A stretch of DNA of 64,000 nucleotides from Pseudovirgaria hyperparasitica (GCA_010093815.1 ML996594.1); one strand, 5' to 3'. Positions 16,341-47,900 are shown, counted from the stretch's first letter. Numbers and translations: made by a program. The notes: generated from the sequence alone by a model not told the origin.

Positions 16341-16484
16341 TACCACCTTACTAGAAGAAATATATAGCCCTATAGTTATTATATAGTACGATATAAAGAC
16401 CGTAAACCCAAGACCTAACTAAGCTAGTTATTATTACATAAAATACCAAGCCGGTCCCTAGGATAATCCTAGAGAATAAGGGTA

Positions 16485-17341: not shown

Positions 17342-17371
17342 NNNNNNNNNNNNNNNNNNNNNNNNNNNNNN
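17342..17371. other. Assembly gap
   Basis: N run. Confidence 0.99.
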
Positions 17372-20142
17372 TCTTTAATCTTCTTAAAGGATATTCTTTT
17401 AACCTCTATTAATTTAATAGATTATAACTTAATATTATACTATTTCTATCTACTATAGACTATAATAGATAAATTAGTAGTAATAGTATATATATTAAGT
17501 AGTACAGCTAAACAGAAGAAGTATTTAATAAATTTTTAATAGTAGTTAGTAAAGCTAATAAAGATATATATATCTTAAACGGATTTTAGTTTAGACTAGT
17601 CTATAATAGTAGTAACTCTATCTCTCTCTATAGTTATACCTTAGTTAATAATAATAAAGCTAAGAAAGTTAATATAGTTCTAGTGGAACTTATATTTAGA
17701 TAGCTAAATATATAGCTTATACTTTTCTAGTCTATCTAGAACTATATATATATACTAGATTTACTTCTTCTTATTATCTAAGAAGATAAGAATATTATCT
17801 AGGTATATAATATATATTATATTAAGTAGATCTACTAGTATATTATAAATATATACTTAAAAGATACCTAGTATATTAGTTAGTCTAAAAGAAACTATAG
17901 TATACTTAAAGTATCTATAATAGATTCTAAAGGCTATTTTCTATTTATTATCCTCCTTAATATAAAGGCGATAGTAGATATTATATAGATTAAGCTTAGT
18001 AAAGATCTTTATACATTCTAGTCTATTAATAGACTTAGAGATAAGAGGTAGTAGATAATAATTCTTTTATATAATATTATTTAGACTATAGTAGTTAATA
18101 TATAGATAGAGGCTTCTATCCTTCTTCTTTATAAAGAGAATTAGAGCTCTAGCTAGAAATATATTAGATCTAATCTATTCTTATATAAGATTCTTTTTAA
18201 TATATTCTTAAAGAACTTATAATTTAGATTCTAAAAGAGGGTAGATAGATCTATATAGAGGCTACTAGCTATCTTTAAGATTAATAGTAAGGTTAGTAGA
18301 TTAGTATTAAGGTAATTTAGAGAAATTAATCGCTAATATAATATATTAGTATATTTTATACTAATATAGTAGGTTTTTATCTACTTTAATACTAAGCTTA
18401 CTATTTTAGATAAGTAAGAGTATATAGATAGTAGAAATTATCTTCTTATAATCTTTCTAGAATTATTTATTATTAATAAGCTATACTAGTTTCTATTAAG
18501 GTAGGTTTATATACTAGCTAGCTATTTTCTTAAGGAAGTCTAGTTTTAGGTTATATTTCTTAAGTTATAGTATATCTAGAATTATATTTAAGGGACTATC
18601 TACTATAATAAAGGTTAAGTAGTAGGGTTTCTATTTCTCTCTACTATCCTAGATACTATATTTAATAGTATAGGTACTATATAACTTAATAGAACTATTA
18701 ATACTATAGAATATAGTATCTTCTAGAGCTTAGATATTAGTATTAAGTTCTTATACTTATTAGATTAATATAATATTAGTAGCTAAACTATTATTAAGTA
18801 TTATAGTCTAATATTATCTAGAAGAATATTAATAGGTCTAGCGTATAGTTTAATATACTATTTAGCGGGTTATCTCTCTATTATAGTTATATCTATAAGT
18901 TATAAGGGTTTCTTATAGACTATTAGTTTTTTATATTTTATACTAGTTAGTTAGGTATAATATATTCTAGCTACTAGTACTTATAATATATAACTAATTA
19001 GTTAGTTATATTAGTACTTAGTAGTTTCTCTAAATAGTACTTAAGTACTATATAGTCTATTCTACTATAGATATAGTAAGTAACTTTAGATTATTTATAT
19101 AAGTCGATTCTTATATCTTAATATATTAATTAGTAGAGAGATCTATAATATAATTCTTATGGTTTTAAGTTTAACATATAGTAGTAGCCTTATAATATTC
19201 TATGAGATCTATTACTAAATCGGTTTTAGTTAGATAATTTTATATTAGATTAGATTATTAGAGATAGTTATATACTAGCGCGGTATTAGTTATTTATTAT
19301 ATACTAGTATTACTCTATAAGATTTATAAGAGCTTAGAGGTCTATAGAGATTATTATTATAAGATTAAGATAGTTCTTTATATTTAGAGTAAGGAACTAT
19401 TTAAAGTTATTATATTATTAAATTATATAATCTTCTTTAGCTTCTCTCTAGAGAGACTAAAGGTATTTAAGAAGTTATAATAGTAACTAATTATCTTATT
19501 ATTAAGTCTTAAAGATATAGCCCTAGATCTAGTTATATTATTTAGCTCTATTACTAAAATATTAGAGAAGGAATTTAGTAAATATATTCTAGTTATAGAT
19601 ATTCTTAGAGTATTTAATTTAGTATACTATCTAATATTCTAAAGGTATTAGATTAAGATAGTTCTAGATAAATCTAATTTTATTACTATTATTTATAAAT
19701 AGATAAAAGAATTAGCTATATTAATAGATCTATATATAGAAGCTCTTTCTACTTTTACTATTAACGTAAGATAGTTTCTTAGATTAGAGTAATTAAGATA
19801 GTAGTAGACTAGAATAGACCGTTTTAGTTAGTATAGATCTATATAAATATAGATTAGTTATTACTAGGACTAAAGTATATAATATAGCTTTAAGTCTTAT
19901 AGTATATTCTTAAGCTTTATCTAGTTTATATAGTTATTACTTAAGTTAAGTCTAATATTATCTCTCTTTATATAGTCTAGTATATATATTATTATAAGAT
20001 ATAGTTAATATTAGATAATTCTAATAGATTAACTTATTAATATTAATAGGGTCTAGCCTTATATTAGAGTTAGGTCTAGTATAGTTTAAACTAGACTAAG
20101 ATAGAGTATAATAGACTCTATCCTTTATTAGGAAAGATACGG

Positions 20143-20520
20143 TACTTCTAGTACTTCTAGGTCTTCCGGTACTCCTAAAGTTATCCTAAATAGGTCCCGG
20201 TACTTCTAGAGTTATTCTATTTCTCCTAGAGTTGTTCTAGTACTTCTTAAGTTATTCTAGTCCTTCTAGAGTTATTCTAGTTCTTATAGAGCCGTCCCGG
20301 GTCTTCTAGAATTATTCTATTAAATATTAAGAAAACGTTTAATCCCGTTATATACCGGCGTATATTAGAATATTCTATTATATACTAGTATATAATAGTA
20401 ATACTACTTTATATTATAACTATATTTTAAGTATCTAGAAATATTCTATAATATACTAGCGTATATTAGAATATTCCGTTATATACTAGTATATATAGTA
20501 AAGTCCTACTATATACTAGT
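20143..20520. repeat. Left subterminal repeat arrays of the TIR element
   Basis: ~20-bp units like CTTCTAGAGTTATTCTAG at 20143-20320, then longer units containing TTATATAC(C/T)(G/A)G(C/T)(G/A)TATA at 20343-20520. Confidence 0.75.
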
Positions 20521-20569
20521 ATAGAATAAATATCTTATTTCTCTTTATATATAGATATATATAGATATA

Positions 20570-23500
20570 TAATTATAAGTAAATAGCGGTTCGTATTTAT
20601 ACTACTATACTATCTAGTCTCTTAGAAGCTACTTAACTAACTACCTTACTTACTTCTATATCTCTATAGAATTACTAAAGTATACGCCTAATACTAGTAT
20701 ATTAGATATAGTTATTACTACTAACTATAGCTATATCTTCTTTTTCTAGGTCTAAGGCTTATTTTCTTATACTTTTAATTATCTAGTCTAACGTGGTAAG
20801 TCTACTCTTAACCCCTAAATAGTCTAAAACTAAAGTATATATATATACTATAGACTAATATTATCTATAGTAATAATATCTTATACTTATCTATAGCCAC
20901 GTCTCCTTATATAGATATTAGTCTACTAATATAATATAACTAGTAACTATTAGATCTTATCTCTTATAGACTTATAAAGCTAAGACTAGTAAAATATATA
21001 GAGAATCTAACTTATTTAATCTAAAATCTTAGTATACCTTATCTATACTAGACGTACTTAGACCGGCTAGTAAATATACTAATATTTTCGATTTTACGTA
21101 TGAACGTAGTACCTATATATATATTAGTAAATTATATTACTAGTAAGTACTAATATAAATACTTACTATATATAGGAATATTATAGTTACTAGTATAGTA
21201 GATATAATTACGATTTTCTCTAGTTAGTTAGTAAATGTTTAATATATATATTTAGTATTTTTATTATAAATCTTTTTATTAATAAGCTTATAGAGCTAGT
21301 TTACCTTTAAAGTAACTCCTTTTAAAGCTAGTAAGATTATATTCTTTTATATACTATTATCTAGCTAGGGGAGTAATTCGCGCATAGGATTAACAATTAC
21401 TCTATCTAATATACTATTATTATCTATTAACAGACGTATAAGCCTAATTTTAATATATTTCTTACTTATTCTTTTATTAGTAAGGTATATAAGTAGTATA
21501 TATATAGTAGCTAGCCTAGCCTTATAGTAGTACGTATTATACCTAAGCCCGTTTAATTTACTCTAGGCGATAGCTTATTTAAGAAGCCTTTAGCCTTTAT
21601 TCTTATATAACTATATAACCCGCTTCTCTATATCTATAGTAGTAATATATATAATATCTACTACTAGGGTTACTATTATAGATAGATAGTTCTTTCTATT
21701 AAACTACTTACTTAGTAGTCCCCTTTATAGAATAAATAGTAAATACTAATTAGCTACTATTCATAGTATATACTTACTATCTATAGTTTCTAATACTATA
21801 CTAACTATACCGGCTATTATCTCCGCCGGCTTATTTTTCATTTAAGAGAGAAGTTTATTTAACTATATTATAACTATCTTTCTTATAGATCTCTTCTATA
21901 TACTCTTAAATACTAATTTAGTATTATTATTATTAATATAGTTAGATAACTAATCTAGAATACCTATTTTAATAGCTAATAGAATATCTAATAGACTATT
22001 TAAGAGGGGCGTTATACTAATCTATATACTAAATATAAAGGGATTAAGTTGCGTATACCTATACTATTTTATTATAGGTTTTTTTAAGGTATAGAACTTA
22101 TCTACTATAAATATACTAATAAATACTATATTATAAGTTTAAATAATATTAGCGCTAAATTTTTTCGCCTTCTTCTCTTTTAGAACTATATATCTAGTAA
22201 AGTTTATAATATATTAGATCTCTATACTTTAGATAGTAGTATAGACTATATTATTCTTCGTATATTATAATAGAAATTTAATAGTAGCGGTCTTATTAAC
22301 GCGAATTAACTACTCCTTAGTAATATACTTCTTACTAGTCTTATATTTTATAGAATTACTAATATTATTATAGTATTTCTATTCGGGGTTAGGGTACCCC
22401 TTAGCTAGATAGTATATATCTATAGATAAGAGTTATCGGATATTAGAGGTATTAAGAAGGGTTTTTAAGTATATTAACTATACTACTATCTTTATTAGAT
22501 TCTATTTATTAATTTTATTAGCGAATATACTATCTATATTATAGTATATCTAGTTAAAGCGCTATAGCTAATATAATACTAGAAGGTTTCTTAGATAGTA
22601 TAGTATAAATAGTTCTTAGAGGCGGGGTACCTTACTAAATTTATTAGTCTAGCTATATAGATATTTAATCGGATATAGAGGTTATATTAGGTACTTTCTA
22701 TCTATATCTAGGTCTTAAGTTAGTAGTAGATACTTTTCTAGATATAGTTCTATATTATTATATAGAAAGTTCTAATAGAATATAAGGTAGATAAACGTTA
22801 TAAGTATAATAGTCTTCTCTAGCCTTAGACTATCTACTAAGATCTAGTAGTTCTATAGATCTATCTACTACTTAAATATAGTAACTACTATAAGTAATTA
22901 GCCGGTCTATAGTCTATATAATCTACTTATACTAAAGGCTAGATATAGAATAGATATATAGCTAAAGTCCTTTATTAGATTATCTAGTATAAGCCTAAAT
23001 ATACTTATAGTAAGTAACTATATCTCTTCCGTATAATAAGAGATAGCTTAGATTACTTTATTAGAGTTATTAATAATAAATACTCTATAGATATATTAGT
23101 ATAGTAGTATATATTTCTACTTACTACTTAGTATAACTTATACTTTCTAAAGTTTTATACTAAGGTTATTATCTACCGGAAGATTATTATCTATATCTAG
23201 TTTTACTTTATCTTTATTAGACTTATTATCTAGAGAATAGATAATAAAGATAATATTATCTACTAATATATTATCTAATATATCTAATATATTTCTACTA
23301 TATAAATCGTCTATTAACCTAATTAGATTCTAGTACTTAAGTATCCGCCGGTTAATATCTAGTAGTATACTATATTCTAGTTTTAAGTGTTTAGGAGAAT
23401 CTATAGAGTTTACTATATTATTTAAGAGTATTCTCTTTACTACTAGTAGCTATAGATAAGCTTTACTAGTATCTAGAGGTTATTATATAATTATCTAAGT

Positions 23501-24230
23501 TAGTAATTATAGCTATATCTATCTTTAATACTACTCTAATATTAGTATCTAGTACTAAGTATATATATATATCTAAGTATACTTATTATATTATCTTCTA
23601 TTTTAGTATCTTCTATATTCTCTTTCTCTTTATATTCTAATAGTAACTATAACTATATATCTATAGCTAGTATATTTATATATATATAAGCTTCGCTAGA
23701 TATAATAGTACTTATAGAGAGATTATCTAAGTTAGTAATTATAGCCGTATCTATCTTTAATACTACTCTAATGTTAGTATCTAGTACTAAGTATATATAT
23801 ATATCTAAGTAGTATATATATATATCTAAGTATACTTATTACGTTATCTTTTATTTTAGTATCTTCTATATTCTCTTTCTCTTTATATTCTAATAGTAAC
23901 TATAACTAGGTATCTATAGCTAGTATATCTATATCTAGTTTAGCCTCTATTATATCTATAGCTATAACTATTAGTACTAACTTACTATCTATAGCCGCGA
24001 TATACTAATTAAATTCTTTAGTAATAGTGTCCTTAACTATTCTAATAAGTATAGTAGTATCTATACTACTATTTTTAAGCTCTTATAATACTTTTCCGTG
24101 TACTATCTTAATAATAGTATCTCTATATATACTATAACTTATTTTAGATAGTTAGTATAGACCTTAGAGGTACTAGATATATAGTAGAAAGACGCTAATA
24201 CTTAAGGCCTCCGTACGTTATACGTGTATA
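20570..24230 (-). pseudogene. SNF2-family (SF2) helicase/ATPase relic
   Basis: One frame gives de-RIP ILADGPGLGKT (22811-22843), IVDEFH (DEFH 22091-22102), WISATP (22007-22024) and EKIVIMS (21200-21220). After a 54-nt GTAAGT..CTAAT..AG intron (21113-21166) come motif V EG.DLTVAS (~20935-20970) and motif VI Q..ARCHR.GQ (~20860-20895). Ends approximate. Confidence 0.8.
23490..23933. repeat. ~190-bp direct duplication (period ~232) in the 5' part of the SNF2 relic
   Basis: 23490-23680 is repeated at 23722-23933. Confidence 0.85.
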
Positions 24231-25459
24231 TTATAGTTAGCTATTCTATAGCTAGTAGTCGAGCTAGAATAGTCGTAACTCTTACTATACTTATATATTT
24301 CTATATATAACTTAGGTTATAGGTAATAAGATAGAGTTAGTAGTAATAAGAGTTAAAAACTATATTTAGGCGGTAGAGGTTAAGTTACCGCGTTTACTAA
24401 TTATAATATAATTTTATAAAGTATAGAGAAAGTAAAGTATATAAGTAAATATTTAATTATTAGTATAGATCTTATATAAATATAATCATAGTAATAATAT
24501 AGCTAGTAGAACCGGGTATATACTAATATAAAATAGATAGACACCGGCTTATACTAGTATATTAATGTCTTAATTAAATATACGTGCTATAGTTATATAG
24601 CTAGTAGAATTAGATATATACTAATATACTATAGGTAGAACCTATCTTATATTAGTATTATATTACCTTAGCTAAATACGCACGCTACTCTTACTATCCC
24701 TAGTATCCTTTTTAATCTTCTATTACTCTTTATAATTAAGATCTATATTATCTATAACTAAGGTACTTCTAAGACTTTTAAAGTTACTATCTTTAGAGCT
24801 TATAGATTAGTCTTATGGCTTTCTAGATACTAATAGTAGTATATATAGTATTACTAGAGGAAGGGTTAAGTCATTTAGATAATACTATCTACTATCTATA
24901 ATACTATCTCTATAGGTATCTCTACTATTATAGATAGTAGCTTTCTATTACTACTATTATACTAGTTATAGTAAGTATAGTATTAGAGATAGAGAGACGG
25001 ATTTATTTAAGTATAACCTATATATAGCCGTCTATACTATTATATATTAGTTACTAGTTTATATTTCGTTTTACTTTAGATATACTATCTATATTCTATC
25101 TAAGGTCGAGAAGTATTATACTATTACTATATTCTAGAACACGTTTAATTACTAACTATAGAAGCTATCTAATATCTATCTCTAGTTCTATTTTACTTAT
25201 TATATACTTAACTAGTAGTATAATAGAATATATAGTAGTATAGCTCTAGTTAAATACTCTTCTAATCTTTATTATATATTAGACTCTAATTTACTATATA
25301 AATACTACTAAATTAATATATAAAGCGTTACTATAATCTTTCTACTAGTTAGATATAGATACTAGTATTTTAAGGAATATATTATTATTAAATCTAATTA
25401 TAAATTTAATTTTTCTTATAGTATATATATTAGTAGGCTATAGAACTACTATAAGTATA

Positions 25460-25590
25460 GACTATAAGGTTATAGTATATAAGAGCTATAAGGTCGTAAT
25501 AGACAGGGGTTATAAGATTACGATAGATAGAGATTATAAGGTTATAATAGGCAGGGATTATAAGATTATAGAATATAGAGCTATAATTAC
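25460..25590. repeat. Degenerate ~24-bp minisatellite
   Basis: About 5 units containing TATAAG(G/A)T(T/C). Confidence 0.6.
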
Positions 25591-26976
25591 GTGCCTCTTC
25601 TTATACTTAGAGATAGTTTTTCTATAATATATGGTTTTCTATACTATAGTATGTACCTAGTTATAGATATAGTATAGTATCTTTATCTCTATATACTCTA
25701 CTACTCTTTTCTATACTACTAGAAATTTATCTACTATCTTATTAATAATCTTATATACTCTTTTTATACTAAGCTTATTCTTAGTTTAATATCTATAGTC
25801 TATAAGTAGAGTAGCTATATATACTTCTATATATAGCTACCTTATATACGCCTCTATAGCTTTACGCTTTACTTATGTATCTAGACTTAAGATATAAAGT
25901 AGTACTATAGTAATTACTATATTTAGACGGTTACTTTATTATAGAATTAGATTTAATATATTAATTATATATAGTTAATATACATAGTTAATATAGTGTT
26001 TATAATTTATAGACTAATTATATAGTATATATATAGTATATTATAGGCGTAAGAAAGATAGAGATATAGATCGGATAATAGAGATAGAAGCCGGAATAAT
26101 AAGGTATCTACTAGGTAAAACTTATTTATATTCTTATTATTTCTTTAATACGCGTTTATAACACGCACGTAACTTAGTATAGCGTGGTTAGACGTATAGT
26201 TATTTACTTTCTATTATCTAATACCCTTAATAGAATTAGATAGCTATGATTCTTATCTTATAATATTATATTATAGGTAACTATATCTAGAATAGTATAT
26301 AACTATATATATATAAGGTACCGCGTTAGTCTTATTCTATTTTATATTTATATACTTATCTCTAGATACTCTCTAAGTATTATATATCTATATTTTATTA
26401 TATTTAAGTATTATATCCTTCTATGCCTTTAAAGTATATAATATTTAGATTTACTATATTCTATATATATTATAGTTGAAGTCTAAAGGTAGAGGCTTTA
26501 ATTAGAGCGTATGTTTTTTTATATTTTCTCTTTAGATAGTAATATCTCCTAATATAAAGACTAGAAGTAGTTTTAAAAGTATAAAGGGGATAACTAAAGA
26601 AAGTCTATATTATTAGGCTAGGGCTTATAGTAGATATAGAATTATATATTTATTTCTTAGTTAGTAGATATTAGTTAATGTACCTAGTAGCGCTATATTA
26701 TCTAATAGTATATCTATACTAGAGTAGATATAATAGAAATACCCTTAATAGATCTCTAATAGAGCTAAACTATCTATCTAATAGAATATTATAACTATAT
26801 CTAAAATAGATATAGAGATATACTTACTAAGAAGCTATAACTAAGTAGCTCTAATACGTAAGTCTAATTATATACTATTACTAATTAACTTCTATATCTT
26901 TATATATTATAATACTACTATCTTAGTTAGTATTCTCGTAGTCTCTATCGTTCTAGCCGCTAGTAGTTACTTTATT

Positions 26977-27046
26977 AGTAGTATTAGCTCTAGTAGTATT
27001 AGTTCTAGTAGTATTAGCTCTAGTAGTATTAGCTCTAGTAGTATTA
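26977..27046 (+). repeat. 15-bp tandem repeat TAGTAGTATTAGCTC, ~5 units
   Basis: Directly visible; a de-RIP reading QQHQP/L is possible. Confidence 0.85.
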
Positions 27047-30000
27047 ACTAAATTATTACTATTTATACGTGCTAGTAATTTAGTATAACTAGAATAATAA
27101 CGCTAAGTATAACTAGTAGTCCTATAATTATAATAAAATATATCTATAAGCGTCTTGGGTTTAGAGTAAATATTAGCTTTATAGCTAATATTCTAATAGT
27201 TATTATATATAAGTATTAACCCTCTTAGATACTTAATAGACTTATATTCTTTAATATTATATTTATAGTAGACTAGCGGCTTATAGAGCTTAGTACTATT
27301 AGTAGTTTATTAATTACTTCGTTCTTCCCTCTCTCTAATACTAAGTATAGAGTAACTATATTAGAGATTAGATATATTAGAGAGTAGAGGGAGACTATCT
27401 AGATTAGGGGTCGTGTACGTATATATTATATAAATCTTAGAGTATCTATTCTTATCTTACTAAGTATACTATCTAGAACTTTCTACCTCTTAAGAGATAC
27501 GAAGTTAGTAATAATAACTATTATCTATTTAGTACGCGTAATAGTAATAATATTATAGTTTACTTCTAAGAGGAAGCCGAAGTAATTAGTTTAGACTAGG
27601 TTAATAAGAACTATATTATTATTATAACCCTAAGAACCATTCTATAAACGCTATTAGATAAGCTTCTATACCGACTTAGATAGAGTATTAAATGAAGCTT
27701 TATCCGCTATAGTAAGTATAGTTAGAAGTAAGTTTCTAACTATCCCTTTAAATAGATTATGTTAGATAGCGTATATAGAAATATAGAGTATATAATTAAG
27801 TATAATACTATAATAGAAGAGCTTAGTAATAATCTACTAAGTAAAACGTAATAAGTCTATATTATATATTAAGTTATTTACCGTATATATATAATCTCTA
27901 TTAATATTAGTATATATAATATATTAATAGCTACGGATTCTAAATATTTATTAAACGGTCTCTACGAGTAGTATATTAATATTATTTATTATATAGAGTA
28001 AGGTTATTAGCTTACCTAAGTAAGTAATTAGTAATATAATATTTATTATTCTAGAAACTAAGCGTTCTAACTTAGTAAGGTAAGTAGTTAGAAAACTATA
28101 TTATATCTAGCGCTTTATAAAGGAGATCCTCTAGTTCGCGGTCTATATATTAGTACTATTATACTAGTAGATATTAAGCTAGCGTAGATTACTAATATAA
28201 ATAAATATTAGTTACTATTCTATAGTAGTATAATTAATAATAATCCTAAGTATATTACTTTTAAGAATATATATAGTCTTCTCTATTATAACTAAAATTA
28301 GATATATATTATAGACTACCTTATTAATATTTATAATATATAGGGTCTCTATATAAATCTAGGCGTAGATAGTAACTAGGTTCTAGATAGCGAGGTATAG
28401 CTTATTTATTCTATTATACTTCTTCTTAGATATATCCTTATTATAAGTATAATATTTATAGATAGTATATAATAGCTAAGCTATTTCTTTCTTAAAATTC
28501 TTAGAGATCTATTTATATTAGTATTAAGATTTAATAAGTCTAATAACCTTAAGTATAATATAACTAGTATATAGTTTCTATAGATAAGTACGGGGATCCG
28601 TACTATATTCTAATAGTTATTTACTATAGTTAGCCTAGACTTATATAAGGATAGTACTATCTATTATATTATTCTAGGTTAGTCTAATAAGAGGGTCGCC
28701 GTAATAAGATAGTCTAGCTATAGTAAAGAAAACCTCTTAATTAATAGCTTTAGGGTATCTTTAAAGAATAACTAGTATCTTTAGAGACTTATAGTAAGTA
28801 AATATATTACTTATATATTTATATACTTTTTCTATAGTATTATTATAGGTTTTATTAGTTAGACTAATAATAATATATATATATATATTCTATATATTTA
28901 GGTGGAACCTAGTATAGAGAGGTGCGCTATTATATTACTAGATAGAATAACTATCTTAGTAGTATAAGTAATAATAGAAGTACTATTTATTTTATTAATT
29001 AGAAGTATAGCTAGTAGTAGATAAAGCTATAAATAGCTCTTTCTAGCTCCTCTATAGCCGTGAAGTAGAAACTAAGCCCTAAGTATATCTATCGTCTATA
29101 TATAGATATACTATTATTAGAGAGATAGTTCTAAATATATAATATTCTAGAGATTATAGAATCTTTTATAATCTTTAATATAGTAGTTATAGTCAATAGG
29201 TTAAAGATTTAGATAGTTATTACTAAGTATTAGATTCTATATAGAGGGTAGTAAAGGGGATAGAATACTAGAGTAGACTTTAGATAATATTAGAAGTATA
29301 TATATATTAGTAATAGGGCTAGTAATAGAACCTTCATCACTAATAACATCATAACTATATTCTATATTTATATCCTTATTATTATCTAGAGATATAGATA
29401 ATTTAGAAAGAGTAATAAGGGTATTCTAAGGCTCTATACTATAATCTAGAATCTTATTATTAGAGTTAGAGGACCTATATATTAGAGATATAGATACCGA
29501 GTCTATAATAATATTAAGGACTATTATATTAAACGTATTCTAAGCGGCGTAGTTATCTATACTACTATCTCTAGAAGCTTATATAGTATAATAGATTAGT
29601 TTCTAGTATATATTAATATGTTACTTAGTAAGCTTATTATAGATTTATATACTAACTAAAGCTAGAATATCTATAAACTCTATAAGTATAGTAAGAGATA
29701 ATCTAATTATACTTAAACTAGTATTACTAGTCCGAATAAAATATTTAGGACGAGCTTAAGTTATATTAGTAACTATATCTATTAATATAATTAGTATCTT
29801 AGATACTTTAGAAGAATATCTAATCTTATTAAGGACTTTTAGAGTAAGGCATTTAAATAGAAGAACGCCTAGGCAAAATTAAAGGACTTTAAAGTAGTAT
29901 ATATTATTATAATAATTCTTTAAATCTACTTTAAGATACCTATAACTATCTAGTTCTATATAATAGAATTCTTTTATATTAATAGAATAGATAATAGCTA

Positions 30001-31042: not shown

Positions 31043-31410
31043 TTCGACTTAAGTATAAGGCTTAGCTTAAATATAAGACTTAGCTTAAATGTAAGACTCG
31101 GCTTAAATATAAGAATTAGCTTAAGTATAAGACTTAGCTTAAATATAAGGATTGGCTTAAGCGTAAGACTTAACTTAAATATAAGACTTAACTTAAATAT
31201 AAGACTCGACTTAAATATAAGAATCGGCTTAAGTATAAGACTCGACTTAAACGTAAGGCTTAACTTAAATATAAGGCTTGGCTTAAACGTAAGACTCGAC
31301 TTAAACATAAGACTCGACTTAAATATAAGACTTAGCTTAAATATAAGACTTAACTTAAATATAAGGCTCGACTTAAACGTAAGACTTAGCTTAAATATAA
31401 GGCTTAATTA
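31043..31410 (+). repeat. 18-bp tandem repeat, ~20 units
   Basis: Unit (G/A)CT(C/T)(G/A)(G/A)CTTAA(G/A)(C/T)(G/A)TAAG; G/C-favouring consensus is consistent with GCT CGG CTT GAG CGT GAG (ARLERE). Confidence 0.92.
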
Positions 31411-35360: not shown

Positions 35361-35370
35361 NNNNNNNNNN
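35361..35370. other. Assembly gap
   Basis: 10 N. Confidence 0.99.
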
Positions 35371-36889
35371 TAATAATAAATAATTATAGTAGTAAACCCT
35401 TATATTAAACACGAATAATGTGATATATTAGTATAGTATATTTATCGATTATAAGAATATATATCTAGTTACTATAGTTTCTAATGGTCTATATAATAAT
35501 ATATATATTAATAATATAATAATATAAGTCTAACTATACTTATAAGACTAGAGAAAGAATAAAGAAAGAGAAGAAGAAATATTAGAAGGGGGAGATACTT
35601 AAGAAAGATATTTCCCTAGTAAGAGCGTTATATACCCGGTATATACTTATTTATACTTATTTATATAGACTTATTATATACCTAGTACTTATTTATTAAT
35701 AGACTCGTTATTTACCTAATACTTACTTAACTATAGACTTATTATATACCCGGTATCTAATAAGATATAAACGTAAATAACGAAAATATTAGAATTAGAT
35801 ATAAGCTAGGTCTAGTAGATCTAGAGATATAGTTTGGATTTTAGGGTATTAATATATATAATCTATCTATATTAGATTAATACTATCTATATCTAGTTCT
35901 ATCTATAAATAAGAATTATTTAAGTTCTATATACCCCTTTTAGAGATATAGAGTTTTTATACTAGCTAGTAATTATTAGGTAATAAGGAGGTGTATCTCT
36001 AGATACTCCTTAGCTAAAATTATAGATAGTTATTAAATATAAGCCTTTTATAGAACTAATTATAATAAACTATAATTATTTCTTAGAGATATCCTAGTAT
36101 AGAATATAACTATTAAGTACTACTATATATAAACTATAACTTCCGCTATATACTAGTATATACTAGTATACTATAGTAGACGATAATAGATAGTAAGAGA
36201 CTTATAATACGCGCCTATATTTTAACGCTATAGTTATGTTTCGTCTATTTATAGTCTAGAAGTCTAGGTTATATACCTTATTATAGATTCTCTAATTAGT
36301 ATATATATTTAACTAGAATAAACTATCTATAACTAACTAATATAATATAATCTATATAGAGTATAGAATATACTCTAGCTCGTAGACACGGAACCTATCT
36401 ATTATATAAGTCTTATTACTAGACCTTTAACCTACTATATATAATAGTATAAGGCTACTAATAGTATTAATATCATCTCTATCTAAGTTATTAAGTAGTT
36501 TAACTAATATACCTAGGAATCGTACTACTATACTACTAGTTATATTAATACTCTCTATATTATATACCTCTAGAAATATATAGACTTTACTAACCTACTT
36601 CCTATTAAGGTAGTTACTACCCTTATTAAACTTCTATACTATTATATAATTCTCTCTAGCCTTACTACTCTTTTATTAGTTATAGATATATCTTATCTAA
36701 ATTAGATTAAAGGCCTCTATAGATATATCTCTATCTAGTTATATTAGTATATATATAGTCTTATATATATAGATAGAAAGGACCTATGCCTATAAAGGGT
36801 CCTTTTTAATATATTTAATATTCGCTTCTTTTAATATATTATCTCTAATAAGCTAATTATAATAGTTATATATAAAGGGTATAACTATA

Positions 36890-39800
36890 ATAATAATAAT
36901 ATTAGTAAACTAGGTAGAGTACCACTCTATAGGCGCATGCCTCCTCTAGTCTAAGCTACTATATAAGAAGAAACCTACGAATAGGAAAAACTCCCTTATA
37001 TCCATAACTACGCTCTATCTATCCTCTCGTTCTTTATATATATAGAGCCCTAGGGGCTACCTATGGGCCTATAGCCTATATTATAATAGTTTACCCTTAG
37101 GCAGCACGTGTAGATACAGAGATTATTAGTTAAGGGCTACCCTTAACTAATAATCGCGGTTCTCCCGGGGTTCTTCTAACGTATACCGGGGTTCTTCTAG
37201 TATATATCGGGCTTCTTCCGGCATATATACGCGGGTCTACTAGAACTAGGGGAGAGGAAGGTATACGAGCATCTATTAGGCGACGTCCTTAGAGTACTTA
37301 TTAAGCTATCGCGTAATGTCGGAGGTCCTCATCATATGTATAAGGGCTTATCTTAGGGTATAGAGGCTAGAGCATATCGCGAGGTAGTAGTATATTATAT
37401 CTCTCCGGCCGTAGTCCTCGTACTAGGGAGATATATCTAGGACGCCTCTCTAGTAGAGGTAATATAGGAGATCTATAGCGCCTATTCGGGCTTAGAGGAG
37501 TATAGATACTTAGGCCTTCGTTAGCCCTTTATATATCTATTTACTTAGTTCCTTCTAAGGCCCTCGAATCTATTCTAGATACCTATTCTATTAGGAGGCC
37601 TACTAGGCTTTAAGTACCTCCCTCTATTTATTCTAGATCTATAACTATATAACGCGGCTAAGCTCCTTAGGGCTCTATTAGCTTAGAATAGTATCCGGGT
37701 TATTTTAAACCTCCTATATAGTCTAGCTTAAGTCCGCCTCTATATAGTATTTATATTATACTTAAGTTTATTCTATAGTAGGGAGGGCCTAGTAATACGC
37801 GTGGATACGTGTACGTAGTACGGCGAAGGTATATACCCTATCTCCTCTACGTTCTTATACTTATTATTTAGTAAAGTATATAAGTCTCTATATCTAGTAG
37901 AAGTCCTATATACTTATTACGTTTATCTCGCGTCGGAGGAGCATCGTATTAGTAGCTTTATATACGCCGGAAATAAGGCGGAGTATATAGTTCTATATAG
38001 ACTTAAGCTTTACTCGCCGAGCTTATATAAGGGCCGTGTACTAGCACTCGTGTCTATATATAAAGGCTAGGCGTGCTAGGGAGACGTATAGCTATCTCGC
38101 CTTATCCTAGGCTATTCCCTACGTGGATGCCGTAATCCGGCGTATAGCGGTTTCTATCTAGAGGGCTCTAGAGACGGCGTGTGCCACCTATGGTCCCTAT
38201 TTTAGCTTATTATTAATTATAACGCCGAGTACTCGTATACTCTATACTAGTAGTTCTATAAAGGCGTCGATTTAGGGGCGACGTACTCCCTCCCTAGTAG
38301 CCCATCCTCTATAGCGGTTAATAAAGTATATAAGCTAGTATTTTTTAGGTGCGAATTTTACTCCGTAGCGCTTTACCTACTAAACGCATTTCTCGTGGTC
38401 TCGTTCGAGTCGTATACATGTTCTACTAGTACTACTATCGACCGCGAGGAGGTATATATCGTCCGTGTATCCGACTACCTCTATATATTCTATTCTCTAA
38501 AGAAGGTCTACTATAAAGAAGAGGAAGAGGATCGGGGAGATAGTACTCCCTTACGGGATGCCGTATACCGTCTCCTTATATTCGCTTTGGTATCCGGGGA
38601 TATATATTTAAGTAGTCCTTTACGCGAGGAAGGACTATATAAATTATATAATCTACTTAGGTATTCGCCTCATCCGGAGGTTATAGATAAGTCTTATATG
38701 GTTTACCTTATTAAACGCCCCTACTATATCTAGGGAGAGTAGCGTAACGACTCGTCCTTATTTCTATATAGTCTAGATAACCTCGAGGATATGTTAAATA
38801 GCTATAATTAGGGAGCTTCCTACCTTCGCCTTCTGGTTTACTAGGAGAAGGCCGTATACCTATACTACTATACTTATCTTCTTAGTAATCATAGCTTCTA
38901 GTACCTTACTAAGGTAGGAGAGGAGGGCGATCGGCCTCCATCCCTTCGGCGTGTTTAGGCTCTTCCCTAGTTTTAGGAGTATAACTATATATACGGTTCG
39001 GAAGCTCTATAGGTAGTATCCTATAAGGGCGCACGCTCGGAATATATGGCCTATAATCGGTAAGGTCGCCTATATGGTTCTCTTATGGCATTAATTCGGA
39101 ATTCCGTCTAGCCCGGGCGCTTTATCGTTCGGGAGTATCTTAATAGCGCCGAGTATATTATTATCCGTGATTTCCCTAGGGATACTTATAGCTTCTAGGT
39201 ATTCCGTGCCGTCGATATCTAATAGGTCTACGGGTTCTAGGAGAGGGAATATAACCTCTTATAGAATCTCTATTTTCTTAAGGCTTATGGAGTACGTCTT
39301 TTCTTAATATATAAGAGGGGGTATAAGTGGTATAGGTGTCGGGGAGGCGGTACTTTTAGCCTATTTTACTATATACTATAGTCTAGTAGTATTACGTATA
39401 TATCTATCCGTAACTATATACTACTATTTACGTTACTTATTACGGAGGACCTTATCTTGTTATCTTCTCGCCTCTCTCTATTTATCCTACGCTTTAGGTA
39501 TATGGTTATAGTATACGCGTATATATAATCTCCGGACTTCTCGCCTATACTCTTATACTTAAGGTATACTTTTCGGGTCTAGGGGTCTATATATTTAGTA
39601 CGGCACGTGTTTATCTCTTACTCCCTAGTACGCCTATAGGAGTGTATTCACGGCCTGGTTAATGGCCGGGCCATTAGATACCTCGACTATAGACGGGTCT
39701 AGGATCGTCGATTCTAGGTCCTTCAGGTACTTTTCCTAGTTAGTGTCCTTCTATAGCCATCGCCCTTATTAGTCTTAAGGGGTGGATATATCTATTATGG

Positions 39801-42189
39801 TCTCTATATATTCGTGGTCGGAGTCTATCTATATAAGGCTTAGGCGGCAGTATTAAGTCCTATTATAAATATATCTAGTGGCTAGGGTAAGGTCGAGTAT
39901 GGATCCGCCCTTATCTTATTTATGTTTTCGCTAGGTAATCTATCCTACTAGTATAAGAAGGTATAGAAAGCCGTGGTATCGGGTGTGTAGTTCTCTAGCT
40001 CGAAGCTCTTCGTAGGTGACGGTTAGTCTACCCTACTAGCTATAATAGAGCTTAAAGTCTTCTAGGAGGATATATTATTCTAGCTCGGTAGTGCCCTTAA
40101 GCATATTATCCGCCTAAAGCGATCGGTTCTAATTATATATATTATATATATAGAGGGGTCCGATATTCGTCTAGAGGTATAGTATTATCCGGAGGTTATC
40201 CCGTTTAGTATACAACTATAATAAGAGTAGAATAGACTTTTAGATATAGAAGAGGACTCTCCTCTCCGGTCCTAGGGGGTATATTATATAATATTCTAGG
40301 TGTGTTATTGGTTTGTTCGTCTAGTAGTGTTTATATAGCTTCTATATAGTAAGTATTATAGCTCCGGTCTCCTTAAGGAGTATCGCCTAGTTCTTACGTT
40401 TATACTATACGTTTATCTATATAATTAGGAGTATATCTTAGTCTCTTATTAGGTGCTGGGGAATATATAGACCTATATATTCGTTCCTCTAAGACGCGAC
40501 TATCCTTATACGGCGGCGGCCTTAGTAATTCCTTAGGGCCGTCCTATTATTAGCTTTCTCGGGATAGTTTACTATTCCTAACCGCTTCCTCGTGAGGAGG
40601 TAGTCTATAGTAGTAGTATTATAGTAAAGAGAGGAACGGTAGTAGGTCGCATCGTTTATAGCTATCTTACTCCCTTTATCCGGATTAAGTAGATATATTT
40701 AGTAACCTATTTACGTTTCGCGCACGTAGCCGACTATAACGGGTACTTACCGTTATAGTTAGAGTACTTCGCCGTATCCCTATCCCTCTAGCCCTCTCCT
40801 CGTGTTCTATAGGGGCACTCCTAGATACTATATTCTTATTAATACTATCTATACCTAGTCTTTTAGGAGTACCGCTATACCGTATACCCGTATCCCTAAT
40901 AGTTAAAGCACTATGTTATCGCCTATACTCTATCCTATAGTTCCGCTATAAGAAGCTCCCCTTCCGCTAGGAATCCCTCTTATATAATTTAATACGCGAG
41001 GGCGGGGTCCTTAAGCTCTACTATTATAGTAGAGTATGCCTTTAATCTAGTTTTAATCCCTTATATATTCTTCTACTATACTCTTACAATCTTAATCCCT
41101 AGGTATTTTTGCTTGTTTAACTATTCTATCCGCGTGATATCCTCTTCTCCGATAACCTATCCGCTTACGTGTATAGAGTATATCTATATTAGGTATATGG
41201 CCGCCCTAATAGAGACGCCTAGAAAGATACTACTAATCGCGTTCGGATCGCGCGAGATGGTCTACTATATAATATTCGTTATCGTGGTAAGTACTACTTC
41301 TCCTAGCGTAAGTTTAGCGGCGACGACGTTTAACTATATTCCCTTTTATTTATTAATCTTACTTACTATATCCTTTAGAGATACTTACTAGACCTATACT
41401 AGGGTGTTCTTATCCTAGATTACGACGCGTATACTACATACTATATCGCCGGTCCGGGGGGCCCGTAGTATAGCCTCCGGTATTACTACTATTTATACCT
41501 ATATACTAGGGTACTTACCTTAAGTAAGTTCCTCCTAGATTCTACGTAGGCTAGCCTCTATTCGGTCGAGTCTACCCTCCGGTTCTCCTAGTTATATCTT
41601 CTTCTCCTCCTCCGTAATTCCCTTTAGGTTCCGGATAAGGTTCTAGAATATATATAGAAGGGTCTTCTAGCCCTCTCCGGCTTCCTTCTCTATACGTACT
41701 ACCTAGTAGTTAATATAATCTAGGAGGGTTTCCCCTCTCGGGGTCCCCTTTATTCCGTCTATCTATAGTGGCGTGCGCCTTTAGATATATTCTACGTTTT
41801 AGATAGGTATATAGTTACCCTTAGTAATATCGCTATATAGCCTTTTCTATCGTACCGGTAGGGGTATATCCGGTATATACCGGGGTATATTAGTGCCTAA
41901 GGCCGCCATATTTATTAGTTAAGGGCTACCCTTAACTAATAAAAGGGGGTTAGCGTATTAGCGTTCTAGTAGCGTGGTCCGTGCCTCTATCTCCGTAAGG
42001 ATTTTAAGAGGGTGTATATATATCTTTACACGGCGATAACGTCTTAGTTTCGACGCTATACGTACGTGTGTATAGTAGTAGTTAGTGTACTCGGTGTACT
42101 CTATCGATTAAGGTATATATCTCGCTGTATTACCCCGAATAGACCAAGTTAGCCTCTTGGGGATGTAAAAGAAGTTTAGAAAACTCTAT
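36890..42189 (-). mobile_element. Full-length Tad1-like LINE, copy 2, inside the TIR element
   Basis: Colinear with copy 1, differing mostly by transitions; 12-bp TSD GGTATAACTATA (36878-36889, 42190-42201). Confidence 0.93.
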
Positions 42190-44499
42190 GGTATAACTAT
42201 ATTAAGTAATATAAAACTACTACTATATATATTATAAAGATCGCCAATAGTAGTCTAGTAGAATATAGATAGTCTATAGCTCTATAAGACATAGAGTATA
42301 TATTTACTCTAGTATAGCTTCTTTAGAATATACCGCTAGCTAACTAGCTTATATATATTATTAAGCTACTCTAGGCTAGAGACTACTAATATACTAGTAC
42401 TAGCCGCTACCTCTATACTACTAGAGATTTTAGTATTTATTATATATATATCTACTACTAGTATCTACTATAGAAACGTCTCCGTCTTATTTAAACCTTA
42501 ATATAATTTCTTTACTATAATATAAGATTACTCTAGTAGCTCTACTAATATTAGATATAACGAACTATAGTACTTTATAGTATTAACTAGGTATAATAAT
42601 ATATAGAACTTCGGAAAGTTAAAATAATTATCCTCTAATTTATCTCTATAATATAGTATAAACTAGTATATTAGATTATCTAGGTATAATATAGTCTCTT
42701 CTAAGTATACTAGTATCTATATATTATATATATAGTATACTACTAATATATATATATATATTAACGACCGCCCGTACTACGCTTAGAAAGTATTAATTAT
42801 AATATAGAAGCGGTTTAAACGTAACTATAAATACTACTACTATATACTTAAACATTGCCCCCGTTTATTATATTACTAAAGTTATATATATAAGTAGATT
42901 ATAATAACTAAATACCCTAATAGACGTAAATTACTTATTAATCGTCTTCTTTACTTATTCTATAGAGGGTATACTAGTAAATATACCCTTTAATCTATAT
43001 TCTATACGCTCTTAATTAATAATATATAAGACTATCTAATTAAACGTATATTCTAATATACCCTTATATAGTTAATATAGAATATCCGGAGCGACCACGC
43101 GGTATATATTAACTCTAGTAAGTAACTAGACGAAATTATCTAATAGCTCTATCTATCTACTAGAATACTAACTCTTAACTAATTAGTAAATATAATAGCT
43201 CTATACTACTAGCGTGAAAGATATCGACGAAAACAATAAGATACTAGGTATACTTATTCTATTATCTATCTTACTACTAGTATACTTACTACTATAGCTA
43301 TTAGTTATTAACTTATAATATATATAGTAAATCTATTTCTATAATAATAAGTATATATAGAACTTCTATATACTAGTAATAGCTTCTCGTAGATACTATC
43401 GTCTATTACTAGAGACTATATATATTAGATATATATACTAATAGAATACACCTGTAATAAGTATCTACTCTAGAAAATCTATAATATATAAAGCTAAATA
43501 TAGATAGTACTTATATAAGCCGCTATTAGTATATAATACTAATACTCTAGTACTTTATATAGTCTATAATACTATATAATAATTAGTATAGTTAACGACT
43601 CTATTATAGGCGGATATATAGGCTAGAACTTTACTTATAACCTAATAGAATATAAAGTAATTTACTACTATTTCTAGCTTAACTACTAGTAATAGAGTAA
43701 GTAGTAGAAATAATAGTAGACTTCTAGATAAGTGGACGTTTAGTAGTAGATTATAAATAGATAGATAGACTAGCTATACTACTCTATTACTACTATAGTT
43801 AGTAAGGTTTATCTTATCTAAAGATAAAATAATAGAGATAATAATAGTACTATCTAGAATAGTAGCGTATATATTCTACTAACTATCTACTATATAGACT
43901 TTACTATATACCTAGTCGCCTAAACTAGTAAATTATTATACTAGCTTAAATATAAGCTTACTAGTAAATAGTTAGTATCTAAGAAGGAATTCTACTAACG
44001 TAAGCGGATTCCTATACTAGTATTTAACTATAGTAGTACTAAATATATTATAGCTATACTACTAACTTTTATATAGTATCTCTTTAGGGTAGTATAATAA
44101 CTACTTATATATAATATTAGATTTTAGTATAAAAAGGTTAGAAGGTATAGTAGAAGTCTATTTAAGGATAGTAGTTAATTTATTATATACTATATTTAAA
44201 ATACTAAACTAATTTATCTATATTATAAGGCGCTCTATAAACTTACTATTAAATTAATTAAATCGGGCCTACTAAATTAGTTACTATTATAAACCTAGAC
44301 CATATATACTTACGTTAGACGGATTATTACGTCTACTCTAGTCTACTATAATATATATACCGCTCTCTTCTTTAAACGTTTTTATTAAATATATAGTACT
44401 AGATACCCTTATTACTATAGATATAGTATTTCTACTATATATATTAGACTAATATACTAAATTAGTACTATAGCTACTAGTAACGCCCTCTATAGATTC

Positions 44500-47400
44500 T
44501 AGGTCCGAAATAGAATTAGAGAATATAGTAGTATCTTTATATAGGGCCGTATTAGTAGTAGAAGTATCTAATTCTATAGACTTAGACTTCTAATTAATAC
44601 TTAGTAGCTAAATACTAATAGAGCGAACTAAAGAGTTCTATTAACTAATATAACTATAAGTACTAAACCTACGCTATAACCTAGTTAATAGTAGTAGCTA
44701 TAGATCTAATAGTTATAATAATAATAGTAATATAGTAAGCTATACTTATCTATACGGTTCCGAGTTATAGTACCTATAGATTATATAGTATATACTACTA
44801 ATCCTTCTACTATAGTATTAGTAGAAGACTATAGTCTATAGTATCTTAAGGTATAGTTACTATAAAGAAAATATACTATAGTATAATTATTAGTAGATAG
44901 TAATAATATAGTATATAATAGATATTCTAGGCGTATACTAGAAGAAGTTAGGTATAAGCCCGTCGAAAGTCTAATATATATCTACTAACCTCTAACTTCT
45001 ACCTAGCTCTTAGCCCCTTAATTCCTATATATACTTACTTAAAATTATTAATAATAATATATAAGTATTACGCGTCTATAAAAACACTATATTAGTCTAT
45101 ATCTAAACCTTTATTATATCTACTAGCTAGTTATTATCCCGCTATCTAATATTATTACCTAGTAGGTTACTAATCTATAGCTAATAAAAATATCTACTAA
45201 TCTCTTATATATCTTCTCTATAGAATCTCTAATATAGAAGATAGTTAAGGGGCTATCTAGCTACTATAGTAGTAATACTAATAAAAGATAATCTAGTAAC
45301 TATAGTAAACTAAATAGGATAGATAAACGAAGATATAATATAATATAGATATATATTAGTATTAATAATAGGGACTTATATAATAGCTATTAATATAAAA
45401 AATATATATATATATATCTAGCTTATCTTAATGTGTTCGTTTATCTACTAATAAACTAGTAGTCTAGATATACTAGTAGTAAATATAGTAGTAATACTCT
45501 ATATAGCTTAGATATTATAGTAATATTCTACTATAATAGTAACTAGGGATATAACGGCCTTACGTTCTCTTCTCTACTATATTAGCTATCTAGCTTAATA
45601 GAAGAAGATAGAGAAATAGTAGTAGAGAGGGAACTAACTATCTATAAAAAGAGGCGGTTCTATAGAGATAGTCTCTAGTCTTATAAACGAGACTAGTACC
45701 TTATAATAATAGAGATTTTAATTACTATTATGTTTTTAGACCAGTTACTACTAGTATTTAATTGCCTTAATATATAGCTAGATAGTAGTCTAGATAGTTT
45801 TAGAATACTAGTATAATCGATCTAGATAGCCGCCGGAGATATTAATCTTAGTAGCTACTATCTTAATTATAATTTATAAAATATACCTCCCGCCTATATT
45901 ATTATACTAGTAAAGAAAGATATAATAGACTTCTATTACTAACTTCTCTCTAGAGTTAGATAGATAGTATCTAAATACTAGAACTAAAAGATAGCTAAGA
46001 AGAGAAAAGCTAGTATAAGTAATCTAATATATAATAACATATATATAGAAGTAAAGGTATATTACTTATATTATATTAGATATATTACTAATTATTAGTA
46101 TAATACTAGTATAACTTAGAAAATATTTATAGAGCTAGTAGTAATTAAGACTCTAAAGTTAGTTCTATTATAGTCTCTAAGATTCCTTAGATTAAAGGGG
46201 TACTATAGTAGTATATTCTAACCGATTCTACTATCTATAATTACTATTATATATATTATAATAAGGTATACCCTTAATAAATATAGTAGCGGGTAGGTGC
46301 TAAACTTATTCTTTAGTTACTATAGATTTATATACTCTCTACTAATACTAGGTATATATATATACCTTTATCTAATTATATACTAAATTATATAGAGGAA
46401 TAGTAAGTACTAAGTCTAATATAGTCGAACTAGGCGCCCTACTATATTAACTATATTTAAAAATCGCTAATAGTATTAGTATTCGTAGTACTAATACTAA
46501 TTAACCTAGATACTATATATATAAATCTATATAAAGATAACCTAGATAACTTCTCTAAAGTAGATATAGATAACTTAGATAAGAGCGAGGAGTCTAAGCT
46601 ATTAGATAATATAAGTATATACTAAAGTTATAGAAGCTATATAGATACTAACTACTATAAAAAGAATAAGTTAGATACTCTAAACTAGTTAGATAAGTAC
46701 CTTAAATTATCTTATATACTATTAGATATAGATAAGAGTTCTATACTACTAGTAGTAGCTACGGATAAGATTATACTATCTTAGATATTAAGTATAGATC
46801 TACTCTAAGTAACCACGGAAATAGTAAATAATAGTATATATATATAGTATAAATAAGTCTATTACTAACTTATTATCTCTAGTTATAGCTACCTTAACTA
46901 GTAGTCTATCTACTCTAACTAATACTTAAATTAAAATAAAGTTAGATAGTAGCGGACGTTTAAGTTAGGTCTTTAACCTATATATAAAGAGTATATACTT
47001 TTAAGAGAAGTCGGATATTAGTATATAACTAGAGAACTATATAGACTACTATAAGACTAAATAGATAATATAAGAGAGAATAAAAATAGTAACTAGAAAT
47101 ATAGAGGGAAGTATCTAGTAGAAGAAAAGGTTATTAAAGATAGTTCTAGATAAGGATATCTTTTAATAGATAAAGAATACTATCTAAAGGTAGAAGAAAG
47201 GAAGGTCTACTATATTTTATTATAGCTATATAGTCGGAGAGAGCTTAGAATAGTACTATTACATTGAGTTCCTAGTCTAATTAATATTAAACCTCTACTC
47301 TCTATTATATATTATCTTTCTAGTATTAAATTTAAAGACTATAATTAAATATACTAAAGATATAATTTAGAATAATAAGATATATAGAGTTATAGAGATA

Positions 47401-47500
47401 CTTTAGATAAAGATATTACTTTAGAAAAGAGACTTCTATTAAAATAGATAGAGTATATAGAGTAGATAGAGTAGATAGAGTAGATAGAGAAGCTAAAATA
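44500..47500 (+). pseudogene. Possible second, degenerate SNF2-like gene relic
   Basis: De-RIP LVIIP.SNIITQW (45127-45165), YSAT (45524), SGQVLNL (46288) and QxxxGRTGR (~46410-46437). Motifs are not all in one frame and no Walker A/B was found. Confidence 0.3.
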
Positions 47501-47597
47501 CTAGATACTATTTATTCTATAAGAGTGATTAGTATATAGTAAATAAGTAGTACTAGTAAGCTAATTAGTATTAAGAAAATAACTAGTACTAATTATC

Positions 47598-47770
47598 CCG
47601 TTAGTATAAATAGTACGTTTAGTATAAACGGGACGTTTAGTATAACTAGTACGTTTAGTACTAACGGGATATTTAGTATAACTAGTACGCTTAGTACTAA
47701 CGGGACGTTTAGTATAACTAGTATATTTAGTATAAACGAGACCTTTAGTATAAGCGGGATACTTAGTAGA
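47598..47770. repeat. Right subterminal 18-bp minisatellite, ~9-10 units
   Basis: Units such as CGTTTAGTATAAACGGGA and CGTTTAGTATAACTAGTA. Confidence 0.85.
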
Positions 47771-47900
47771 AATTATATAAAGCCGTTCTATTAGAATAGA
47801 TAGTAAGTAGATCCGTCTAATAAATATAATAGAATAAAAGAATACTTAGGGAGTACTTAGAAGTACTTAGGAGCGCCGTATCTTTCCTAATATTATATTC

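Follow-up and report, generated by a model that had tools for sequence, protein, structure and literature searches.

Plavaka transposons fall within the CMC/CMCT clade and are related to the CACTA/EnSpm elements. Autonomous Plavaka elements are defined operationally by the transposase domain PF18759, according to the available part of Hiltunen et al. (PMC8290104). The accessible text of PMC12730594 separates two fungal lineages, PlavakaA with a 2-bp target-site duplication (TSD) and TGT..ACA termini and PlavakaB with a 2-3-bp TSD and CATCA..TGATG termini, within a wider clade that typically has CA..TG ends and 2-5-bp duplications; the same text documents Agaricomycotina Plavaka with 2-bp TSDs and mushroom Plavaka that carry TET/JBP genes. 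In truffles, Plavaka elements make 2-bp TSDs and have CATAC at the terminus (PMC12581995, in the portion available), and giant Plavaka elements of 17.4-19.1 kb, with three accessory genes and tandem arrays beside one of them, are reported from the red algae Bostrychia and Chondrus in the accessible part of a further study (bioRxiv 10.1101/2025.02.11.637652). Here we analyze a stretch of 64,000 nucleotides from Pseudovirgaria hyperparasitica (GCA_010093815.1, ML996594.1), referred to throughout as the window, in which positions 20126-47892 very probably represent one inactivated copy of a multi-copy, unusually large (~21.5 kb net) cut-and-paste transposon of the Plavaka group, CMC/CMCT clade.

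Insertion structure and transposase relic

The element spans 27,767 bp and interrupts one of two inverted copies of a Gypsy-type retroelement that is degraded by repeat-induced point mutation (RIP). Self-BLAST aligned the two pieces of the interrupted host repeat (16678-20129 and 47887-48356) with an uninterrupted inverted paralogue at 50415-54504, and Pfam profiles identified the latter as Gypsy-type (RVT_1, E 1.1e-8; RT_RNaseH_2, E 6.7e-6). The left part of the host, on the minus strand, occupies 16678-20125 and continues at 47895-48356. The interrupted copy reads CTCTATCC-TT-(27,767-bp element)-TT-ATATTC, whereas the paralogous empty site (50871-50886, minus strand) reads CTCTATTC-TT-ATATTC, with a single TT at 50877-50878. 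The dinucleotides at 20124-20125 and 47893-47894 are the left and right copies of a 2-bp TSD, of which the unbroken paralogous site has one TT.

Terminal inverted repeats (TIRs) lie immediately inside these dinucleotides. The left TIR has the exact core TATTAGGAAAGATACGG at 20126-20142 on the plus strand, with a degenerate extension to ~20180, and the right TIR at 47876-47892 on the minus strand is its exact reverse complement; each 17-nt word occurs once in the window. The match extends to ~37 columns with 4 mismatches, all of them transitions, and one gap, and when purines and pyrimidines are collapsed it reaches ~55 columns and is perfect apart from three gap blocks. Given the base composition, the chance of a 17-nt inverted match at two positions fixed beforehand by the empty site is p ~1.2e-9. 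Random position pairs gave an inverted match of at least 17 nt in 5/2,000,000 cases, and these five probably stem from real inverted repeats within the sampled range. Both ends also carry subterminal arrays: on the left at 20143-20523, with a period of 20 at 20203-20319 and a 10/30-nt periodic stretch at 20361-20523, and on the right at 47528-47772, with a period of 18/36. The GC-rich hexamer GTCCCG is found twice in each subterminal array and in opposite orientation between the ends (plus strand at 20194 and 20294 on the left, minus strand at 47629 and 47701 on the right), with 13 sites in the window against 5.8 expected. Positions 20126-47892 are a genuine transposon structure. An earlier note on this DNA had described an element bounded by TIRs at these positions, with a 2-bp TT duplication, an empty site in the same window and subterminal tandem arrays at both ends, and had likened it on these grounds to CACTA/CMC elements rather than to Starships; our analysis bears out this description.

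The whole window is a nest of degraded mobile elements, with a GC content of 0.14-0.44 throughout and no open frame of 300 codons or more; the longest apparent frames fall on a run of N. In the parts of the window that were measured, the RIP index TpA/ApT is 1.5-2.2 and (CpA+TpG)/(ApC+GpT) is 0.01-0.22, the latter being 0.04-0.06 within the element. Two copies of a long interspersed nuclear element (LINE) in the window differ from each other at 308 sites, 302 of them by transitions, with CpA as the commonest context. Changes between these less-RIPped copies fall at CpA (89), CpC (50), CpG (17) and CpT (7), and CpT changes are common (45) when the heavily RIPped Gypsy copies are compared. Because the RIP indices are extreme and the differences between repeat copies are nearly all transitions, we infer that the window is DNA of a fungus with active RIP, probably one of the Pezizomycotina.

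Coding capacity was sought with Pfam profiles in six-frame translations, stops being read as X, at E cut-offs of 0.01 (20001-34000), 10 (20100-26100 and 26000-31600), 0.1 (33900-35360 and 35371-42200) and 1 (42100-47900). Apart from three weak matches on an 18-nt tandem array described below, all six frames of the 21.5-kb body yielded a single Pfam family, the Plavaka transposase PF18759. Its match lies on the minus strand at 43447-44037, with E 6.5e-11 and a score of 42.5 bits, above the curated cut-off of 26.3. RNY codon periodicity (purine in the first and pyrimidine in the third position) keeps one phase over ~43.0-46.1 kb, which fits a transposase gene of ~1,000 codons, and we place the relic of this gene at 43000-46100, minus strand. 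The same stop-read-through scan detected the reverse transcriptase in the equally RIPped host element, which served as a control. By eye, the transposase relic reads ..IIDFLEX..YLIY.., which would fit D..E(Q)..CxxC with C and H changed to Y by RIP. The earlier note had left the superfamily open and named no described fungal TIR family with an SNF2 gene at its terminus; the match to PF18759 places the element in a described fungal TIR family. Among the Pfam families it had named for checking, Plavaka was matched, but Transposase_21 and DUF3435 were not.

The termini can be read in the same light. Changes of CpA to TpA and of TpG to TpA turn CATCA..TGATG into the observed TATTA..TAATA, and since CpA and TpG are nearly extinct in the element, this is how CATCA..TGATG would read by now. 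The CC and GG beside the termini, which lie outside a CpA context, survive. TGT would give TAT under RIP and is also compatible with the observed terminus, so that TATTA..TAATA is compatible with both the PlavakaA and the PlavakaB lineage. In the accessible part of the PMC12730594 supplement, Plavaka-11_AB begins CATCAG, the unmutated form of the first six bases of the element, although so short a word, compared by eye, counts little. CACTA would require two C-to-T changes to become TATTA, one of them in a CpT context, and is disfavoured as the pre-RIP terminus. The guesses of the earlier note (CACTAGG/CACCAGG or TGTCAGG) therefore hold in part: TGT is still a possible starting form, but CACTA is disfavoured.

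Size, copies and coding content

Two retroelements are nested within the element. One is a LINE on the minus strand (36890-42189; RVT_1, E 3.9e-20), which has a simple repeat as its tail and is flanked by a 12-bp TSD, GGTATAACTATA, at 36878-36889 and 42190-42201. The other is a 945-bp non-long-terminal-repeat retroposon that resembles a short interspersed nuclear element (SINE), also on the minus strand (31904-32848), with a simple-repeat tail and a 14-bp TSD, TTCTAAATTCTATA, at 31890-31903 and 32849-32862; two other copies of it in the window have 13-bp TSDs of their own. The GC content of both insertions is ~0.37-0.42, against 0.22-0.26 in the surrounding element. They are much less RIPped and therefore arrived after most of the mutation; both are later insertions and not part of the element. 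Their removal (5,312 bp for the LINE with its 12-bp TSD and 959 bp for the SINE-like retroposon with its 14-bp TSD) reduces 27,767 bp to a net size of 21,496 bp, in agreement with the ~21.5 kb given earlier. This figure includes a 10-N scaffold gap at 35361-35370, which is present as the earlier note had said and which no contig among those listed bridges.

Other copies of the element were found among the contigs of two public runs from one sample, possibly the source of the assembly, which were aligned to 28401-48400 at ≥80% identity. The two runs yielded 24,153 and 10,521 matching short contigs. Differences among those listed for run X1 were dominated by transitions (A>G 463, T>C 421, G>A 157, C>T 125; each transversion 1-10), so other copies are often less mutated than the window copy at a given site. 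Summed over contigs, a measure that does not count copies, depth holds steady at 12-26 thousand across 28.4-36.4 kb and 42.4-47.7 kb of the element body, compared with ~190-300 for single exact contigs, and amounts to 65-175 thousand over the LINE, 50 thousand over the Gypsy flank and 19-25 thousand over the SINE-like piece. The flat profile argues for one family over 28401-48400, and this family has many copies, probably in the tens. The expectation that other copies exist or existed is thus borne out by thousands of diverged contigs over the body. Single-copy host DNA in the interior had been named beforehand as grounds for abandoning the element; the contigs show many copies over 28401-48400.

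In each run, one contig ends the element at 47892 and then runs into LINE-like sequence near 41074, which is a second insertion site with the same right terminus. Further contig joints, at 34382 and ~46.5 kb of the element, lead into LINE ends, and we attribute them to other copies with different LINEs nested in them. The window has TA at many sites where every overlapping contig reads CG (for example 29895-29896, 33184-33185 and 36596-36597), which amounts to double transitions at CpG in the window copy relative to the other copies. Metagenome contigs containing the 17-nt terminus were also considered, and the 22 loci were rejected as chance matches, none sharing more than 20-25 nt with the terminus; one of them had two weak matches of 52-80 nt, at 72-81% identity, inside the body.

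The strongest coding relic of the element lies at 26600-31000 on the minus strand and comprises ~1,450 codons in three frame segments, each with one phase (RNY 0.33-0.49). Together with the transposase relic at 43.0-46.1 kb, this RNY support at 26.6-31.0 kb agrees with the kb-scale gene relics reported in the interior by the earlier note. Stop counts favour the minus strand in two segments (42/700 and 35/499 codons) and the plus strand in the remaining one, 26200-27100 (22 stops in 300 codons, vs 31 on the minus strand). The relic had no Pfam match in six frames and no PDB match by phmmer at E up to 1. When its 29000-31000 part was compared by phmmer with 1.84 billion representatives, the one match (E 4.4e-5, in 9 stretches) was to a protein of 1,347 aa that is repetitive internally and shows scattered, noise-level Pfam matches, and was rejected as spurious. 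We also aligned proteins in a RIP-aware manner, scoring every codon for all amino acids that it may have specified before C>T/G>A changes. As a control, the heavily RIPped host element was aligned with a mildly RIPped Gypsy polyprotein and gave 369 (null range 42-63); Gypsy queries and LINE frames reached a maximum of 69 against the whole element body. Therefore, the relic at 26.6-31.0 kb is not a hidden Gypsy or LINE of those kinds. By analogy with the red-algal giants and their accessory genes and tandem arrays, and with the mushroom Plavaka that carry TET/JBP genes, we regard it as a candidate accessory gene, which is its most likely nature. TET/JBP, methylase, SET and ParB had no match in the Pfam scans of the element.

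Directly upstream of this minus-strand relic, at 31036-31407, is an internal tandem array of 18 nt x 20.6 copies. Its relation to the subterminal arrays is no better than chance, and its dyad symmetry and self-complementarity are no better than those of shuffled units. A tblastx comparison of the element body with the window scored only the body's own tandem repeats. Weak codon-periodic stretches at 21000-25000 are possible coding relics as well; their assignment to the minus strand is favoured only by stop counts at 21.0-23.4 kb, and they had no Pfam match at E up to 10 and no PDB match by phmmer at E up to 1. An internal direct repeat of ~230-250 bp, 83% identical, is also present in the element's left part, at 23451-23937.

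From what is established for the family, the minus-strand DDE transposase would bind the TIRs and subterminal arrays, excise the element and insert it at a staggered 2-bp cut. The element sits in the Gypsy-type retroelement, where TT is seen duplicated on both sides. Because the family is repeated, RIP would then have stripped nearly all CpA and TpG and ruined all frames, as the RIP indices and transition-only differences suggest. The LINE and the SINE-like retroposon inserted afterwards, as their intact target duplications and much higher GC content show. Besides the transposase, the element holds at least one long coding relic, that at 26.6-31.0 kb, which is probably an accessory gene.

Weighing of alternative explanations

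Several observations weigh against a single large Plavaka copy. The Plavaka profile is matched in part, over positions 41-235 of 325 and in one stretch, and one recognizable domain in 21.5 kb leaves room for unrecognized nested elements. A word-indexed protein search with the transposase relic gave no match at E<=0.001 among 7,999 scored candidates; our reading is that shared words have been lost to RIP, not that relatives are lacking. The termini fit Plavaka only if RIP reversal is assumed, and this copy does not allow TGT, CATCA and CACTA to be told apart. The contig comparison spans the right 20 kb only, with the left 8.3 kb outside it, and its summed depth is no copy number; both runs represent a single sample, possibly the one from which the assembly was made. 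The scaffold gap falls within the element. Finally, divergence of the host from its paralogue is unequal, with 6/462 mismatched columns on the right (1.3%; 47895-48356 vs 50415-50876) and 146/2,814 on the left (5.2%; 17372-20125 vs 50886-53690), which is compatible with a misjoin as well as with a RIP length threshold.

The alternative that survives best, although we consider it unlikely, is that a smaller Plavaka element has been swollen by further nested, RIP-obscured transposons, in which case the giant size would not be that of the mobile unit. The single Pfam domain and the left 8.3 kb beyond the contig comparison (28401-48400) speak for it, and the two nested insertions were recognized only thanks to other copies in the window. 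However, the depth of 12-26 thousand is flat, the LINE and the Gypsy flank standing out from it sharply and the SINE-like piece only slightly. The RIP-aware score of at most 69 in the body is near the null and far from the control, no second TIR was found in the interior even with purines and pyrimidines collapsed, and the recognized nested elements are much less RIPped than the body.

A scaffold misjoin at 35361-35370 is less probable still. Here the halves would come from two copies of the same element-in-Gypsy arrangement, and the length and order of the element would be unreliable. The 10-N gap, the lack of a bridging contig among those listed and the low divergence of the right host fragment relative to the left speak for such a join, but both junctions lie at the same host TT and the termini are mutually inverted, so that even a misjoin would link halves of the same insertion event or of its duplicate. 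RIP recognizes repeats above a length threshold, and the difference in divergence is also expected if the 0.46-kb right fragment is below the length that RIP recognizes. Either this piece escaped later RIP once it was cut off, or the assembly was joined at the N gap.

We regard as very improbable a canonical CACTA/EnSpm element (Transposase_21 type, CACTA..TAGTG) in place of Plavaka. Subterminal arrays at both ends are typical of CACTA elements, and two C-to-T changes would turn CACTA into TATTA. However, Plavaka was the sole match and Transposase_21 had none in any frame, the TSD is 2 bp and not 3, and the second C lies in CpT, the least-hit context of the LINE copies (7), a weak argument given that CpT changes are common (45) between the Gypsy copies. 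A Starship or another giant element driven by a tyrosine recombinase or helicase (Helitron-like or SNF2-bearing) is scarcely credible: the size is in the lower Starship range and the earlier note had claimed helicase-like relics, but there is no DUF3435, phage-integrase, Helitron_like_N, PIF1, SNF2 or Helicase_C match in any frame, SNF2 motif scans are at chance level and a Plavaka-type DDE transposase relic is present.

The claimed helicase genes, among them an SNF2 gene at the terminus, were not recovered. Helicase, SNF2, Rep, PIF1, DUF3435 and integrase families were absent from the six-frame Pfam scans of all element parts, including a DUF3435 captain at either end; RIP lowers the sensitivity of such scans, yet the reverse transcriptase and Plavaka domains were found at the same RIP level. 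When the codons of the element were scanned for RIP-compatible forms of SNF2 motifs II, III, V and VI, none of the four motifs had an exact match. With one mismatch allowed, the counts were 1, 4, 24 and 3, respectively, against shuffle means of 0.5, 3.7, 36.5 and 1.1, and there was no collinear II-III-VI chain. P-loop-like matches (6 and 7, against shuffle means of 3.6 and 4.8) were likewise at shuffle level. The SNF2 scan used short motifs and was run without a RIPped SNF2 gene as positive control, which lowers the weight of its negative result. As far as this is testable, the element appears to contain no helicase.

Neighbouring repeats and known relatives

The surroundings of the element consist of further repeats. 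The two Gypsy copies (16678-48356 and 50415-54504) face each other head to head across 2,058 bp in which a LINE fragment lies, and they share their end position in the retroelement (48356 and 50415). Instead of having inserted separately, they may have arisen by inverted segmental duplication. The LINE family of the window is represented at 5796-10375, 36890-42189 and 56097-61379 and by the inverted fragment at 48695-50416. Its copies (RVT_1, E 3.9e-20) are 93% and 73% identical and, with a GC content of ~0.40, far less RIPped than their surroundings. Its contig depth far exceeds all others in the sample, and it is probably the youngest and most abundant repeat of the window. The retroposon of ~945 bp is present in three copies (1511-2454, 31904-32848 and 54913-55856), each with its own 13-14-bp target duplication. 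Its 5' start, GGCTAGGTGGCGTAG.., looks tRNA-like and its end is a simple (TAT/ATA)n tail, so that it looks like a SINE mobilized by the LINE family of the window. A second Gypsy-type retroelement, mildly RIPped, occupies 10300-16700 (RVT_1, E 1.9e-18; RT_RNaseH_2, E 1.7e-14), with an integrase-like stretch seen by eye and a 90-bp x 3 tandem repeat at 15825-16094.

The element at 20126-47892 is a further, large, RIP-inactivated member of the already described Plavaka family, giant forms of which are known elsewhere. It resembles maize En/Spm and other CACTA elements in its short TIRs, in having subterminal arrays at each end and in its DDE transposase, which belongs to the same broad clade, but the 3-bp TSD and Transposase_21 domain of CACTA elements were not found in it. 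With PlavakaA and PlavakaB of fungi, as presented in the accessible text of PMC12730594, it has in common PF18759, a 2-bp TSD and a cut-and-paste TIR organization, and its termini are compatible after RIP with CATCA..TGATG (B) or TGT..ACA (A). In contrast to these elements, every frame has been destroyed by RIP and no TET/JBP relic was detected. Its net size of ~21.5 kb looks large for a fungal Plavaka, as judged without published lengths for the fungal families. The Plavaka elements of Tuberaceae (truffles, and thus ascomycetes) share the 2-bp TSD, the TIRs and a Plavaka-type transposase, as far as the available part of PMC12581995 describes them; however, TATTA cannot be derived by transitions alone from their TIR motif 5'-CATAC-3', which has A where the element has T at position 4.

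Very large Plavaka-type transposons can form a visible share of the AT-rich, RIP-mutated compartments of fungal genomes, and they are easily left unclassified or mislabelled. Consensus sequences of truffle Plavaka, for example, had been mislabelled LTR/Pao, as the accessible part of PMC12581995 relates. The present copy offers a worked example of recognizing a class II element after RIP saturation, through the empty site, transition-tolerant TIR matching, profiles read through stops and RIP-aware alignment. If the gene at 26.6-31.0 kb is real cargo, less-mutated copies of the family are the place to seek a new transposon accessory function.

The giant Plavaka elements of red algae, to the extent that the available text describes them, resemble the element in size, in the combination of a transposase with further long genes, in the array beside an accessory gene and in their many degenerate copies. 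Their accessory genes (adenine methylase and SET; ParB-like and 2OG oxygenase) were not detected in the element, the self-complementarity of its array is no better than that of shuffled units, and the kingdom differs. We tentatively suggest, as a possibility that goes well beyond the assignment to Plavaka, that the window contains one copy of a high-copy, ~21.5-kb PlavakaB-like family in a RIP-active fungus, probably an ascomycete, and that the element integrally carries a gene of ~1,450 codons, from a gene family absent from Pfam and PDB, beside the 18-nt x 20 array. If true, cargo-bearing Plavaka of this kind would for the first time be recorded beyond mushrooms, truffles and algae, and the element would be a fungal counterpart of the red-algal giants, whose accessory genes are thought to act on the chromatin of their own element.

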